From contig CAZKAD010000001.1 of NCBI GenBank assembly GCA_964550845.1, positions 21,342 through 85,341 on the forward strand: DNA of 64,000 bases, given 5' to 3'. The position numbers and the translations under genes are program-made. Shown here piece by piece: positions 37,757 through 46,077 of the stretch (within the stretch, counting starts at the first letter, position 1; each line of letters begins with the position of its first letter). The notes beneath the pieces are model-generated. The model was not told the origin of the DNA. It did no database searches and worked only from the letters and a program-made list of their open reading frames with translations. The stretch is from an uncultured Gammaproteobacteria bacterium (GTDB lineage Bacteria; Patescibacteriota; Patescibacteriia; Magasanikbacterales; UBA922).

Positions 37757-39193
37757 ATGAGTATTCGAGCTGGCTGCCGAATTCCATCAAAAGGGTTATT
37801 AATTAATTTAGATACCAAAGAGATTCTTAATTTCTCAGATCATCTTAACTTGAACATAGGAGGCATCTATGATTACTCACCTCAACGGAAATGCGGATCT
37901 CTTGATTTCCCGTCCGATGATGAAATAAAAGGATACAATATGGTTTGTTACAATGGCAAACTTGATAAGTTTGCCACAATGACTAGAAAATATATTTATT
38001 TCTGGGATCTTTCCACAATTAGAGAAAAGGTTCCTTATCAGAGATGCAAACGTCCATCCTCACCATGTGTGAATTTCGGATATCTTGATAATGAATGTGT
38101 AATTGTGCTTGAAGACGAATCTTACAAAGATATTTATACCTTATACACTTACAAAACAAATTTTGTTGGACAAAAGCTTGAATTAATTGCCAAGATTCCA
38201 ACCGAATGTGATAATATTGTGACAGATGGAAATCAAATTATAGTCGGTGACGAACATTCTTCGGTTTACTCAATTTTTGAATTTGATGAAAAACAGAGAT
38301 TGATATTTAGTGACGTCATTCAAGTTGAACAACCTGACCATTTAATAACTAGTATTTGTACGCCGAAGTTTCAGGTATTTCTATCAAATTTTCAAATGCA
38401 GATTCGCTGTAAAATCGGTAACTTTTCTACTCGAACAAGTAGCACCGTCCAAGATGCTGATCCAACTACATTATATGTTATTCGAACATATAATGTAGTT
38501 GGATCAGCATCTTCAATAATCCATTTCAACTCGTTCAATCACGATAATTTCGACTTTATTATCATCGCCAATGATTACGGTTTTGACGACGAATCTAATT
38601 TCGAGGATATTGATGAATTTTGGGATAATTATACTCCTTTGAATATCTATCGAATAAATCTCCCAAATAAAGAGATTATTCAAATCGACGAAGAAGTCGA
38701 TTACTGGGAAAATAATGATCAATTTCGAGCAGCTAGACAAATAGTTCATTATCCGGCTCATGATTTTTTAATCCTCCAAAGAGATGTTATCGAAATATGG
38801 AATCTTTTTCCTATGTTTAAGCTGTGGGCATCTGATCAAATGTTCGATAAATGGGAAAAGATTGCAATTACCAATAAACTCGAAGCAACTGGAATCACCC
38901 ATGGTGTTCAAAAAACAACCATCTTTCTTGCACCATGCATTTTTGCAAATCTGATTGCATCAGGGTTATTTGAATTAAACAAGGAGGAAATTTTAACTTC
39001 CTTTTTACAAAAAGATTTGTATGATCCTCGTTTGTTAATGACGATTTGGTCTTTTGTTTACGAGCCAAGATTGGCAAGTGGAGATTACCAGATTAATGAA
39101 ATCTCTTCAGATGATGATTCCTTAAATGAAGATGAAGATTCGTTCTTCCGTCTACGATCCATGATTGTCGAATGGAGATTACCAGATCAATAA
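37757..39193 (+). CDS. LYDPRLL-tail family protein (long, LIW subtype; 478 aa)
   Basis: C-terminal FLQKDLYDPRLLMTIWSFVYEP. Confidence 0.6.
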   Translation: MSIRAGCRIPSKGLLINLDTKEILNFSDHLNLNIGGIYDYSPQRKCGSLDFPSDDEIKGYNMVCYNGKLDKFATMTRKYIYFWDLSTIREKVPYQRCKRPSSPCVNFGYLDNECVIVLEDESYKDIYTLYTYKTNFVGQKLELIAKIPTECDNIVTDGNQIIVGDEHSSVYSIFEFDEKQRLIFSDVIQVEQPDHLITSICTPKFQVFLSNFQMQIRCKIGNFSTRTSSTVQDADPTTLYVIRTYNVVGSASSIIHFNSFNHDNFDFIIIANDYGFDDESNFEDIDEFWDNYTPLNIYRINLPNKEIIQIDEEVDYWENNDQFRAARQIVHYPAHDFLILQRDVIEIWNLFPMFKLWASDQMFDKWEKIAITNKLEATGITHGVQKTTIFLAPCIFANLIASGLFELNKEEILTSFLQKDLYDPRLLMTIWSFVYEPRLASGDYQINEISSDDDSLNEDEDSFFRLRSMIVEWRLPDQ

Positions 39194-39319
39194 AATCTCT
39201 TTAAATGCCGATTCTCTAAACGATAATGAAGATTGACATCATCTTTTAGTATTATTTATCTCTCGAGATAGATAAAATGATTTTATTATGCGTTCTCAAA
39301 AGTAAAGACGTTCCATCCC

Positions 39320-39982
39320 ATGAATATCGATTTGTTTGACAAATTTCCTTTATCATGTCTAAAATTTAGCGGATCAATTCGGGCCCGTTATGAAAACTTT
39401 GATCAATTTGTTCAGCTTTGTTCCATTATTGCTGAGAAAAAACAGTATCACACTATACATTTCAATCAAGAAGATGCCCGAAAAACTAATTTTACTGATA
39501 TTTCAATTCAATATCATTCGATAAAGAGGATTAATGAAGTTTGTTATTCATCTGAGATGAACGTATTAAAAATAAAGAAAACAATTTTAGGCATTCGATA
39601 CATCAACATCGATAATCTTGATGTACTGCAAAAATTACTTCAGTCACCTACGTTGTATCCTGGAGCTACATTGGACATTGATATTGATTTAGATTATGAA
39701 TCAAGCAACGAAACGAAAAATATAAGCACTAAAAATGAATTGGCTGTATTGGACATGATGATTCAGTCAGAATCACCATTGAGGAATCTTGATATTAAAT
39801 ATTATGTTGGCAATCTTGGTGGAATGAGAGAATTGAATATCAGTAGCTTACTCCGATTGATGCAGTTTGTTTGCTGCGGGTTGAATCTACGTGATTATTC
39901 TACATGGTCTTCCTTTCTAACTCGAGAATTATATGATCCGAGAATACTTAGTTTAATTGCGAAATTTGCATTTTGCATGTAA
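39320..39982 (+). CDS. LYDPRLL-tail family protein, subfamily A
   Basis: LRNLD, LLRLMQFVCCGL and FLTRELYDPRILSLIAKFAF. Confidence 0.6.
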   Translation: MNIDLFDKFPLSCLKFSGSIRARYENFDQFVQLCSIIAEKKQYHTIHFNQEDARKTNFTDISIQYHSIKRINEVCYSSEMNVLKIKKTILGIRYINIDNLDVLQKLLQSPTLYPGATLDIDIDLDYESSNETKNISTKNELAVLDMMIQSESPLRNLDIKYYVGNLGGMRELNISSLLRLMQFVCCGLNLRDYSTWSSFLTRELYDPRILSLIAKFAFCM

Positions 39983-40030
39983 AATTGATTTCTCTTCGAG
40001 ATAAAAACAATTTATATTATAATTATAGTA

Positions 40031-40693
40031 ATGTTTTCAAACTTACATGAAATAAAATCAGAATTAGTTGGTACAATTAAAACTATTTCTCGATCAGGTG
40101 AAGAGTTTGTCAAACTTTGCGATCAACTTCAACATCTAAATCGTCATACTATTTATTTTTCGACTAATTTTCGATGGTATGCTAATGTTGATGAAAAATT
40201 GGAAGATTTTGAGGACTACGATAGCATTTTTTCTCTTACGATCATTGAATTTGGGACTCAAAATCAATTTGAATTTGAAGCTAAAACTGCCATCTTCAGA
40301 AATAAATGTGTTGAACAAATTCCCCGAATTAACCATATTGATCTCTGGCATGCAGAAGAAATGAATTATCAACTTAATTGCCCTGGTGCAACAGTCGAAC
40401 ATCATTATCGTTCGGGACATAAGAAGGAGATTCATAAAAATTATTTCATACTGCTTCATGATCTCCTCAAATCAGAATCGATGTTGCGCAATTTGAACAA
40501 TGTGGTAACCACGAAAAATGCCATTCGAATCACAGAACTTCTCTCTTTAATGAAAATCATTTGTCTTGGGCTTGTAGATGAGAGCGATTTGAATTCTTTT
40601 TTAACTCGAGAATTGTATGATCCTCGATTGTTAATTACGATTGCCGAATTTACAGATCAACATTCGATTTTAATCAGCGTCAGCCCTTTTTGA
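40031..40693 (+). CDS. LYDPRLL-tail family protein, subfamily A
   Basis: LVGTIKTISRS..EFVKLC and FLTRELYDPRLLITIAEF. AAAATTGA at 39981-39988. Confidence 0.6.
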   Translation: MFSNLHEIKSELVGTIKTISRSGEEFVKLCDQLQHLNRHTIYFSTNFRWYANVDEKLEDFEDYDSIFSLTIIEFGTQNQFEFEAKTAIFRNKCVEQIPRINHIDLWHAEEMNYQLNCPGATVEHHYRSGHKKEIHKNYFILLHDLLKSESMLRNLNNVVTTKNAIRITELLSLMKIICLGLVDESDLNSFLTRELYDPRLLITIAEFTDQHSILISVSPF

Positions 40694-45189: not shown

Positions 45190-45248
45190 TTATGTTTGTT
45201 TCCTCAAGAGGAAGCAAAAAATTTTAGTTTGTAATCAACACCCGTTGT

Positions 45249-45992
45249 TTAGTCTTCATTATCACTATTATCACTATTCGCCATGGCCAAAATAGCCGCG
45301 TACTCTGGACCAGGGGCGAGATGCTCATCACGATAATTATTAAAATCTTCTTCAAATTCCTCACCAAAGGCATCAAAATCTTTGATTTTGTTCGGATCGA
45401 AGGCAAATTGATGAATCAAAATCAGAATTCTCGGGTCATACAATTCTCGAGTCAAAAATGTATGAAAACAACTATTTCCTTCCGAATCATTCAGTCCTGA
45501 AGCAACCAATTCTCCAAGTGGATCGTAGCCGTGATCAACTTTTTCACCGAGCAAGCGAACAAAAATTTCAAGAAGATGATGATGACAGTCTACTGTATCT
45601 CCATACATTCCATAGTCATGAGTGTAATATCTCGTAATTCCTTGATTATTTTCAAGTAAAATAAGACAATATTTTGGATTATCACCATGAAGACGTATCA
45701 AATAACGAAATGCTGAAGTATCAGGGTAATTCTGTTGAAGAAAAAGTTTAAAATTTTCATACTGGCTTTGAGTGAAGACTATTTCACTATTTTCGGATTT
45801 GTGTTTGCTACGCTTAAATATATGATGAGAAAAATAAAAGTACAATGTCCCTTGAGAAATCTTTTTTGATAATTCGAAATGTTCATTTAGCGCATTACCA
45901 CGATGACATTTCCCCAGCTTTTCAATCAAGATTTGCGCGTCAATTCGAAAGATTTCAATTGGATTAAATGTCGCAAGGGACTGGTTAAACAT
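45249..45992 (-). CDS. LYDPRLL-tail family protein, subfamily B (inverted orientation)
   Basis: MFNQSLATFNPIEIFRI...FLTRELYDPRILILIHQFAFDP. The track ORF started at GTG 46055. Confidence 0.6.
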   Translation of the reverse strand: MFNQSLATFNPIEIFRIDAQILIEKLGKCHRGNALNEHFELSKKISQGTLYFYFSHHIFKRSKHKSENSEIVFTQSQYENFKLFLQQNYPDTSAFRYLIRLHGDNPKYCLILLENNQGITRYYTHDYGMYGDTVDCHHHLLEIFVRLLGEKVDHGYDPLGELVASGLNDSEGNSCFHTFLTRELYDPRILILIHQFAFDPNKIKDFDAFGEEFEEDFNNYRDEHLAPGPEYAAILAMANSDNSDNED

Positions 45993-46051
45993 CTCTTTAG
46001 TTTGACTATCTAATGATATCTTTACAATTTGATCAATGGACAAAGGTAAAA

Positions 46052-46077
46052 TCACTTTTCCTCTTGAGGAAAAGTGA
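46052..46077. terminator. hairpin TCACTTTTCCTC-TT-GAGGAAAAGTGA
   Basis: Perfect 12-bp stem between two minus-strand genes. Confidence 0.6.

Follow-up and report, generated by a model that had tools for sequence, protein, structure and literature searches.

The F-box, the SOCS box, BTB and PRANC each couple many substrate-binding domains to one degradation machine, and each newly found recruiting box has opened a family of host-virus interactions. Several such systems have been described in large DNA viruses of the phylum Nucleocytoviricota: the ankyrin proteins of chloroviruses carry a C-terminal Skp1-binding motif and are paired with a viral Skp1 (A039L with A682L/A607R) (PMC7019647), the MGF505 proteins of ASFV are a multigene family that carries a SOCS-box-like motif and recruits cullin-RING ligases (PMC13342108), and proteins that join ankyrin repeats to an F-box-like domain are common in giant viruses (PMC10583209).

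Here we analyse a gene family in a stretch of 64,000 nucleotides (the window, by which we mean the whole stretch) whose members share a small C-terminal module that we name the LYDPR box. Like the ankyrin-PRANC (PF09372) proteins of poxviruses and chloroviruses, they belong to large DNA viruses, combine variable repeat heads with a small C-terminal helical box and come as many paralogues, but the box has no sequence or profile similarity to PRANC or the F-box, most heads are orphan rather than ankyrin, and the Skp1 partner is putative. Cellular SOCS-box proteins (WSB, ASB and SOCS) likewise end in a three-helix box of about 40 residues, preceded by WD40 repeats, ankyrin repeats or another binding domain. 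Eukaryotic F-box proteins (FBXW and FBXL) also join a small helical box to WD40 or LRR domains in large, fast-diversifying families, although the F-box (PF00646/PF12937) is usually N-terminal, whereas the LYDPR box is C-terminal in most members, and no homology was detected. Finally, the lineage-specific tandem arrays, strain-variable copy number and presumed host interaction recall the expanded families of Mimiviridae (ankyrin, BTB, FNIP/IP22, F-box and WD40) and the MGF360/505 genes of ASFV; unlike all of these, the present family is defined by a domain absent from Pfam.

The family and its members in the window

The window is a core region of an uncultivated Mimiviridae-like giant virus (Nucleocytoviricota), on the evidence of its hallmark genes (PolB, capping enzyme, Rpb1, RNR small subunit, FEN1/XPG and DUF5757) and of a AAAATTGA-type promoter motif. 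By PolB, no named virus comes closer than 76% identity, and the nearest relative, at that value, is itself metagenomic. Twelve copies of the family are present, 11 intact and one frameshifted, with 10 in an array (37757..46055) and two dispersed, LIW2 (397..1422, plus strand) and LIW3 (62976..63767, minus strand). These positions agree with an earlier note on this DNA, which had counted 13 genes; 12 ORFs contain the exact LYDPR core together with the block around it, against about 0.03 chance occurrences that we estimate for the six-frame translation, and a profile of the block, run on that translation, finds exactly the same 12 places (E-values 2e-19 to 4e-25). The conserved unit is also longer than the roughly 25 residues first described, reaching about 45 once the helix that precedes the block (h..hh..GL) and a variable-length loop are counted. 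The multigene family itself is genuine and, as proposed, defined only by its C-terminal module: the LYDPR box is the sole element common to every member.

The array opens with LIW1 (37757..39193, plus strand, 478 aa), in which an orphan, beta-rich N-terminal region is followed by the module (38927-39067) and by an acidic tail, which a degenerate tandem duplication of 94 nt (39038-39131 and 39132-39225) has lengthened; its orthologues P0002-P0006 are 70-91% identical. Six genes of subfamily A come next, all on the plus strand. A1 (39320..39982, 220 aa, module 39839-39979) has orthologues at 89% (P0001) and 66% identity (P0005), and A2 (40031..40693, 220 aa, module 40523-40663) belongs to the core of the subfamily. 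A3 (40750..41460, 236 aa from the ATG at 40750, module 41281-41439) has a long H1-H2 loop, and A4 (41501..42187, module 42023-42163) encodes 228 aa from the ATG at 41501. Both of these starts lie past intergenic hairpins and fit the gene calls of a relative better than the TTG codons at 40690 and 41417; that of A3 follows the hairpin at 40713-40737 and agrees with a 236-aa gene call in the related contig L001. A5 (42278..42904, 208 aa, module 42743-42883) is divergent, and A6 (42937..43570) is disrupted, its module (43437-43568) lying in another frame than the N-terminal ORF (42880..43452) because of an exact 44-nt tandem duplication (43341-43384 and 43385-43428; repeat families D3, D14 and D16). 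A6 is either a pseudogene or an assembly error.

Subfamily B closes the array with B1 (43720..44403, plus strand, 227 aa, module 44176-44316, then an acidic tail), B2 (44488..45189, plus strand, 233 aa, module 44875-45015, then an acidic repetitive tail of repeat family D9) and B3 (45249..45992, minus strand, 247 aa, module 45393-45533), which is inverted relative to the other two (inverted repeats I1-I5). The B3 start at the ATG at 45992 aligns with the N terminus of its paralogue B1, whereas the alternative GTG at 46055 does not. Of the dispersed copies, LIW2, whose ORF may start at 331, has an orphan N-terminal region and a module at 1279-1419 (HMM E=2e-20), and its full-length protein has no match in Pfam; LIW3 (263 aa, module 62985-63125) belongs to orthologue cluster P0013. 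A further family member is seen just past the 3' end of the window (L013, 2766..3761, minus strand).

The division into three subtypes needs some revision. The motifs given for subfamily B (FNPIEIFRI, YFYFSHH and GEKVDHGYDPLGELVA) are present, as are the central LRNL.NVV and L.RLICLGL of subfamily A, but the N-terminal LVGT.K.VSRS..DF.KLC ascribed to the latter is limited to three of its six genes (40031, 40750 and 41501), those at 39320 and 42278/42937 being more distant. The N-terminal region of the 42278 group (42278..42904 and two metagenomic relatives, with 42937..43570 a near copy of 42278..42904) aligns with that of the main A group at 89.7% probability in hhalign. The 'WD-like' N termini proposed for the LIW subtype are not supported, as Pfam WD40 is silent (E<=1), hhalign gives less than 1%, and the AlphaFold2 model of LIW1, with a pLDDT of 33, has beta-rich secondary structure but an unreliable and uninterpretable fold. 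No N-terminal similarity of the three LIW proteins to one another or to WD40 could be detected, and comparison of the LIW regions with true WD40-plus-box relatives gave hhalign probabilities of 0.3-0.5%.

Sequence, predicted fold and conservation of the LYDPR box

The box follows the pattern h..hh..GL, variable loop, W..FLT.(E/G)LYDPRLL.LI..F, in which D, P and R are strictly invariant, Y is nearly so and the W and G positions are also conserved. Its roughly 45 residues include 13 conserved hydrophobic positions, which suggest an exposed binding surface. AlphaFold2, run with 124 module segments and with the segment 40499-40690 of A2 as the target of the module-only model, returned a pLDDT of 83.7 and three helices (residues 5-26, 30-36 and 43-60), amounting to a long helical hairpin whose arms are linked by a short helix. 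In this prediction the box folds on its own as a unit of three helices. The structures nearest to it are helical hairpins and coiled-coil bundles of a generic kind, and none of the solved folds matched it specifically.

Such neighbours would suit a self-association domain, whose hairpins would pair into a four-helix bundle and build homo- or hetero-oligomers of paralogues as multivalent scaffolds. The many paralogues, probably co-expressed from similar promoter-like motifs, could heterodimerise, and LisH-type dimerisation motifs beside WD40 propellers are a known precedent. We nevertheless judge this quite unlikely: the invariant D, P and R, with the Y, W and G, look like a specific recognition or capping motif, neither LisH nor any other dimerisation family in Pfam matched the modules, and oligomerisation alone would leave unexplained why recognisable heads are exclusively binding repeats.

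The earlier note could not assign the block to any domain family, and our searches bear this out, with no match in Pfam, among PDB sequences or to a specific solved fold; nor did the tail confidently match any of the domains whose expansion in Mimiviridae is established. The Pfam models F-box, F-box-like, PRANC and SOCS_box were silent on 124 isolated modules (E<=10), and F-box, PRANC and SOCS_box did not match 10 full-length window members (F-box at E<=1). In hhalign, the box reached a probability of 0.7% against nine F-box sequences and of 0.2% against eight SOCS boxes, both sets compiled by hand. The box consensus lacks the LPxE motif, by which it differs from PRANC and the F-box, and both hallmarks of the SOCS box (PF07525), the BC box ([STP]LxxxC, in its longer form [STP]LxxxCxxx[LIV]) and the Cul box LPxP; helix 1 reads L..hh..GL, and the turn is YDPR rather than LPxP. 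We consider it improbable that the box descends, with extreme divergence, from the F-box/PRANC or the SOCS-box family and is thus a member of a known family as opposed to an analogue. The similar size (about 40-45 aa) and three-helix layout, the C-terminal place after ankyrin or WD40 as in PRANC and SOCS-box proteins, and a viral Skp1 in a relative would all accord with common descent.

The box is also conserved as DNA, with TATGATCCTCGATT present in nine copies, and in three orthologue pairs the module has a lower dS than the N-terminal part. Furthermore, a serine recombinase gene that is not itself a family member (36661..37644, plus strand, Pfam Resolvase 1.4e-14) lies directly upstream of the array, and serine recombinases adjoin family members in the related contigs L001/L002 and L011 too. 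These features could point to a DNA-level repeat without protein function, spread by gene conversion or a mobile element, with decaying or spurious ORFs. We give this very little credence and consider it effectively refuted by the confident AlphaFold2 fold of the module, by its conservation at the protein level, with synonymous variation, across 232 sequence clusters, and by dN/dS, which stays well below 1 throughout (0.18-0.34 for the N-terminal parts in comparisons of orthologues and of paralogues). The ORFs are, moreover, intact and accompanied by regular promoter-like motifs and hairpins. The family genes are real and under purifying selection.

N-terminal heads and candidate partners

Among 155 located modules, the median tail is 7 aa and 111 end no more than 20 aa from the C terminus; a few proteins have the box at the N terminus, some of them apparently the products of genes that were broken or fused. 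The 151 box proteins, by contrast with their common module, fall into 77 N-terminal groups unrelated by BLAST. The heads that Pfam recognises are all protein-binding repeats, with no enzyme among them: WD40 in P0036 (WD40 residues 4-356, module 365-401) and P0113, LRR in P0073, P0077, P0144 and P0149, ankyrin in P0062 (repeats 63-224, module 250-291), and DUF4116 in P0109 and P0142. A nine-member cluster is also WD40-like (hhalign probability 95%). P0036 resembles the WSB proteins, a resemblance that is architectural only. F-box, SOCS-box and PRANC modules are combined with this same repertoire of heads. No fold can be recognised in about 85% of the N-terminal domains, among them every one in the window, and the argument from repeat partners therefore rests on a minority of members.

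The suggestion that these are adaptor or targeting proteins gains support from the roughly 77 unrelated N-terminal groups and from the binding-repeat heads in relatives, and we regard it as likely that they are modular and have in common a domain for docking or assembly. The box would connect very diverse target-binding domains (WD40, LRR, ankyrin and DUF4116 in relatives; orphan A, B and LIW domains in the window) to one common partner, for which a cullin-RING ubiquitin ligase hub, for example a Skp1-like adaptor of host or virus, would be the most likely candidate, and box proteins would then mark host or viral proteins for ubiquitination. That the box is a new docking box and its proteins virus-encoded substrate receptors acting by a ubiquitin-ligase mechanism is a tentative proposal, to which we give just under an even chance; both the common partner and its membership of the ubiquitin system are what we infer. 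More speculative is the fuller version, possible but somewhat doubtful, in which the box represents a class of recruiting box that had escaped notice, with a structure unlike those of the F-box, SOCS box, BTB and PRANC, and that has been massively expanded in an uncultivated giant-virus lineage and plugs dozens of fast-evolving heads into a host or viral (Skp1-like) ligase hub.

A Skp1 homologue is encoded on the relative contig JACCDN010544314.1 (L008, 17410..18027, minus strand), with both Pfam Skp1 domains scoring above their curated cut-offs; the 25 Pfam families listed for this contig, out of 45, include no canonical F-box family. The ankyrin-plus-box protein P0062 in one relative and this homologue in another add to the likeness to ankyrin-PRANC systems. 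Skp1 was seen in this one relative only and was not found in the window or the other fragments (about 367 kb in all), and a scan of approximately 40 window ORFs revealed no gene of the ubiquitin system.

An invariant module on some 77 unrelated heads, with an autonomous fold, 13 conserved hydrophobic positions and no similarity to any ligase box, would fit equally well if the common partner lay outside ubiquitination, so that the box served as an address tag to the virus factory, in particle packaging, or for a hub of the host, for instance a membrane or the cytoskeleton. We consider this unlikely, since a WD40, LRR or ankyrin head with a small terminal box is the classic architecture of a substrate receptor and a Skp1 gene co-occurs on one relative contig; nor do we know of any packaging or factory signal of such a kind in giant viruses.

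Distribution, promoter-like motifs and turnover

An exhaustive hmmsearch with the 12 window modules as profile retrieved 232 cluster representatives (E<=1e-3) that are less than 50% identical to each other. Sources were traced for 10 clusters, every one of them metagenomic and without an informative name, and the family has been found so far solely on metagenomic contigs, those examined being giant-virus contigs. It was not found in IMG/VR contigs, nor in bacterial or archaeal genome records, the exceptions being a viral MAG that had been mis-binned and a 2.6-kb contig assigned to a Babeliales bin. Copy number in two related viruses is at least 12-13 and at least 22. JACCDN010544314.1 (81 kb) carries at least 12 box genes, and among its 82 ORFs only two families are expanded, this one and collagen repeats. 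Although it is known from at least 232 sequence clusters and reaches 22 or more copies in one relative, the box still has no Pfam or PDB entry. If it recruits a ligase or another hub, it would offer a handle on how an uncultivated group of giant viruses reprogrammes its hosts and a compact, portable docking module; whatever the partner, a domain definition would end the annotation of these genes as unrelated hypothetical proteins.

Within the array, a repeated intergenic unit (40704..40741, plus strand; D5, I14-I17) consists of the promoter-like AAAA(T/C/A)TGATTT followed by a GC-poor hairpin, CTCTCTTCTCGAAGAGAGG, with other copies at 41452-41489, 42240-42277, 42897-42934, 43630-43667 and 44400-44437. 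After A3, A4 and A5 the promoter-like element overlaps the preceding stop codon (41452, 42240 and 42897). Promoter-like AAAA(T/C)TGA motifs lie 38-70 nt upstream of family genes, and the window contains 40 copies of AAAATTGA where 25.9 would be expected, a count reached in none of 100 shuffles; many of the copies precede an ATG by 40-70 nt. By analogy with the early promoter of mimivirus, which has the same motif, the family genes may be expressed early.

Family turnover by tandem duplication, insertion/deletion and pseudogenisation is shown by the loci compared here, and the tandem array, the frameshifted copy and presence/absence between strains fit a host-interaction family. A WD40-box gene is present or absent between strains with 99% identical PolB proteins: the near-identical strain L015 has a WD40-plus-module gene inserted directly after the counterpart of LIW2.

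The LYDPR box and its copies in the window

A six-frame scan of the window finds 12 ORFs that carry an LYDPR core together with the block around it, and a profile search with the block returns exactly the same 12 places (E = 2e-19 to 4e-25), one fewer than the 13 genes counted in an earlier note. Ten of these copies lie in the array at 37757..46055 (LIW1, A1–A6 and B1–B3) and the other two are dispersed, at 397..1422 (LIW2) and 62976..63767 (minus strand; LIW3). Alignment of the tails extends the conserved unit, earlier put at about 25 amino acids, to about 45 residues, comprising a first helix (h..hh..GL), a loop of 4–20 residues and then W..FLT.(E/D)LYDPRLL.LI..F; we refer to this domain as the LYDPR box. 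The subfamily motifs listed in the earlier note hold for subfamily B (three genes, with B3 inverted relative to B1 and B2) and for three core A genes, but not for 39320 and 42278/42937, which are more distant A-like genes, and the N-terminal parts of the three long LIW proteins are mutually unrelated. Box-family genes are real, with dN/dS at 0.18–0.34 when N-terminal parts are compared between orthologues or paralogues, and the shared-tail multigene family described earlier proves both genuine and more substantial than was visible from the window sequence alone.

An AlphaFold2 model built on 124 module segments is confident (mean pLDDT 83.7), with helices predicted at residues 5–26, 30–36 and 43–60 of the segment encoded at 40499–40690 of the window; in this model the invariant YDPR makes the turn into the last helix and caps its N-terminal end. 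Pfam gave no match at E ≤ 1 to 10 full-length members from the window, and no relevant one at E ≤ 10 to the 124 isolated modules; PDB sequence profiles returned only chance matches, to designed helical repeats containing 'DPRLL', and Foldseek comparison of the module model with the PDB and viral models returned none below E = 3. These three sets of negatives agree with the earlier note, in which the block could not be matched to a known domain family, and a literature search with the motif strings LYDPR and YDPRLL found no relevant report. Neither Pfam (2025 copy) nor the PDB contains this widespread domain, by which a large modular family of an uncultivated giant-virus lineage is defined.

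Relatives of the family and their genomic contexts

A word-indexed search with an alignment of 27 module sequences, a procedure probably insensitive to short profiles, returned no matches at E ≤ 10 despite the existence of known members, and the same type of search with full-length paralogues found six close orthologues only. The 12 window modules, used as an HMM query in an exhaustive search of 1.84 billion cluster representatives, retrieved 232 proteins at E ≤ 1e-3, with 13 at E ≤ 1e-10. The 155 modules placed in the retrieved sequences are followed by a median tail of 7 residues, 111 of them finishing within 20 residues of the C terminus, and the consensus of the wider family reads FLT(K/R)GLYDPRL. 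All 10 clusters whose source was looked up are metagenomic, and the sole name is the generic 'WD40 repeat protein', carried by one member.

The relatives lie in viral surroundings whose gene order partly matches that of the window. A close strain (L001/L002) has the same array, and the 100-kb contig L011, whose family-B DNA polymerase (PolB) is 76% identical, shares with window 36661–56987 the gene order WD40-plus-box, resolvase, two small box genes, capping enzyme, RNase H, phosphatase, Rho_N protein and Rpb1. At least 12 box copies are found on the 81-kb contig JACCDN010544314.1, and locus L013 adds a further copy just past the 3′ end of the window. In strain L015 (PolB 99% identical), a 1.28-kb insertion (9987..11268) relative to window position ~1441–1444 contains exactly one WD40-plus-box gene, P0155, directly after the LIW2 orthologue; LIW2 was rejected as the positional orthologue of P0155, which by DNA alignment is an extra gene beside the LIW2 orthologue in L015.

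Fragments retrieved from CALMMZ01 (L017–L051), a MAG filed as 'uncultured bacterium' (GTDB; SRR5676435_bin.113), hold at least 22 box copies; with a GC content of 0.32–0.38 and one gene identical to P0113 from viral contig L011, it is evidently a mis-binned giant virus of the L011 type. The only other confident match in bacterial and archaeal genome records is a 2.6-kb contig assigned to Candidatus Babeliales (L043; E = 6e-15, one box gene), which we take to be putative viral contamination, the remaining loci being chance pattern matches or marginal. A bacterial-effector origin of the box is unsupported, because the confident bacterial and archaeal matches reduce to this mis-binned viral MAG and the putative contaminant. 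Two scans of IMG/VR viral contigs with motif patterns yielded no confirmed relative.

Heads joined to the box and its putative role

BLAST sorts the N-terminal parts of 151 members into 77 clusters (49 singletons), those of the A and B heads holding 12 and 9 sequences, and no profile-level relationship was found among the A, B and LIW heads; homology between A and B heads was rejected at an hhalign probability of 0.6%. Pfam recognises a minority of heads, all of which are protein-binding repeats and none of which contains an enzyme domain. They include complete WD40 propellers (P0036, with WD40 at 4–356 and the box at 365–401, and P0113), LRRs (P0073, P0077, P0144 and P0149), ankyrin repeats (P0062; repeats 63–224, box 250–291) and DUF4116 repeats (P0109 and P0142, in which the box is N-terminal), and a nine-member cluster is WD40-like (hhalign probability 95%). 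The WD-like N termini ascribed earlier to the LIW proteins of the window are not detectably WD40 by Pfam or by hhalign against the WD40-box relatives. Propellers in these proteins are likewise unsupported by structure prediction, full-length LIW1 giving an unusable model (pLDDT 33).

The presence of one invariant, autonomous domain on dozens of unrelated heads, the recognisable ones all being binding repeats, argues for a docking module that would bring diverse binders onto one common partner. In function this proposed module comes closest to the F-box, the SOCS box and PRANC, an F-box-like domain at the C terminus of ankyrin proteins in poxviruses and chloroviruses, and the box most likely works as they do. 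Chloroviruses pair C-terminal F-box-like ankyrin proteins with a viral Skp1 (PMC7019647, PMC10583209), and a SOCS-box-like motif in the MGF505 proteins of ASFV recruits cullin-RING ligases (PMC13342108). Membership of the box in the F-box, PRANC or SOCS-box families finds no support in the profile, motif and structure tests applied; hhalign against small sets of F-box and SOCS-box sequences, a weak test, gave a probability below 1%. A genuine relationship to F-box or SOCS too distant to detect, a separate question of membership that overlaps the main, ubiquitin-ligase reading, would be highly improbable.

Searching 367 kb of viral fragments by tblastn with ubiquitin-system proteins revealed one Skp1 homologue, of 205 amino acids (L008 17410..18027, minus strand), on the same 81-kb JACCDN010544314.1 that carries at least 12 box genes; its Pfam scores exceed the cut-offs for both Skp1 (38.6 bits) and Skp1_POZ (24.7 bits). 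Across the 82 ORFs of this virus, judged on the best 25 of 45 Pfam families, the box family and collagen repeats are the only expanded families and no canonical F-box family is seen, although a single weak F-box may lie among the other families. Box proteins may resemble the analogues in acting as ubiquitin-ligase substrate receptors, a tentative reading that we place a little short of probable because the support from Skp1 and related observations is circumstantial. A docking module with a partner other than a ubiquitin ligase seems unlikely, and a box that serves for self-association somewhat more unlikely still.

Array turnover and genome setting

The dynamics of the family are compatible with an arms race in host interaction, although they fall short of proving one; they comprise tandem duplication, the B3 inversion, a fresh frameshift, possible gene conversion of the module, and genes that one strain has and a near-identical one lacks. 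In three orthologue pairs between the window and L001, dS is lower in the module, for which the sample is a small one of 42 codons, than in the N-terminal part (0.22 versus 1.16, 0.41 versus 1.05 and 0.16 versus 0.35), which suggests gene conversion among paralogues or constraint at the DNA level. Every array spacer repeats one unit, consisting of an AAAA(T/C)TGATTT motif, a hairpin (CTCTCTTCTCGAAGAGAGG) and the next ATG about 10 nt on, and after A3, A4 and A5 the motif overlaps the stop codon of the upstream gene; this fits the tandem duplication of whole expression units. In the A6 copy (42937..43570), an exact 44-nt tandem duplication (43341–43384 and 43385–43428) disrupts the gene and moves the module to another frame.

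Further repeats mark the array. In the coding region of LIW1, a perfect 29-nt inverted repeat with a 5-nt loop (38451–38513) matches a short protein segment absent from the related proteins P0003 and P0004 and looks like a palindromic insertion, and at the 3′ end a degenerate 94-nt tandem duplication (39038–39225, 77% identity) lengthens the tail; LIW1 has 478 amino acids, as does P0002, against 446–458 in three of four orthologues. About eight tandem copies of a 9-nt repeat (GGAGTAATC and variants) run from the 3′ end of A4 through the spacer before A5 (42172–42250). The array is followed by a small paralogous gene pair on the minus strand (46083..46448 and 46547..46891), neither with a Pfam match, the first of which encodes FEELNKR repeats through a 21-nt repeat present five times (46077–46181). 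A serine recombinase (Resolvase) adjoins box genes in the window (36661..37644, plus strand), in the close strain L001 (8907..9890) and in the distant L011 (10969..11772; 32% identity), and may be a conserved neighbour or have a role in array rearrangement.

The window comes from the core of a giant-virus genome (Nucleocytoviricota), has a GC content of 33–42% and encodes PolB (2824..5781), an mRNA capping enzyme (47117..50275, minus strand), an RNR small subunit, FEN1/XPG, RNase H, a dual-specificity phosphatase and several kinases. Its PolB is identical to that on a 259-kb NCBI metagenomic contig; the next closest, at 76% identity, is likewise metagenomic, and none of the PolB matches comes from a named virus. 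The mimivirus early promoter sequence AAAATTGA occurs 40 times in the window against 25.9 expected, frequently 40–70 nt upstream of start codons.

A kinesin motor gene (16275..18800, minus strand) is interrupted by a Hint/intein domain (Pfam Kinesin 3.7e-95, Hom_end_hint 1.2e-08), an unusual feature for a virus kinesin. The Rpb1 ORF (54051..56987, plus strand) encodes just 978 amino acids, against 1,002 for its L011 homologue, and stops soon after entering Pfam Rpb1 domain 5, of which it covers profile positions 1–64 of 267; this lineage may have a split form of the largest RNA polymerase subunit. Weak DHH and DHHA1 matches are divided between the overlapping neighbour ORFs 33280..33771 and 33768..34415 (plus strand; 163 and 215 amino acids), where L001 has one 380-amino-acid gene (5603..6745), the split in the window probably being a frameshift or sequencing error.
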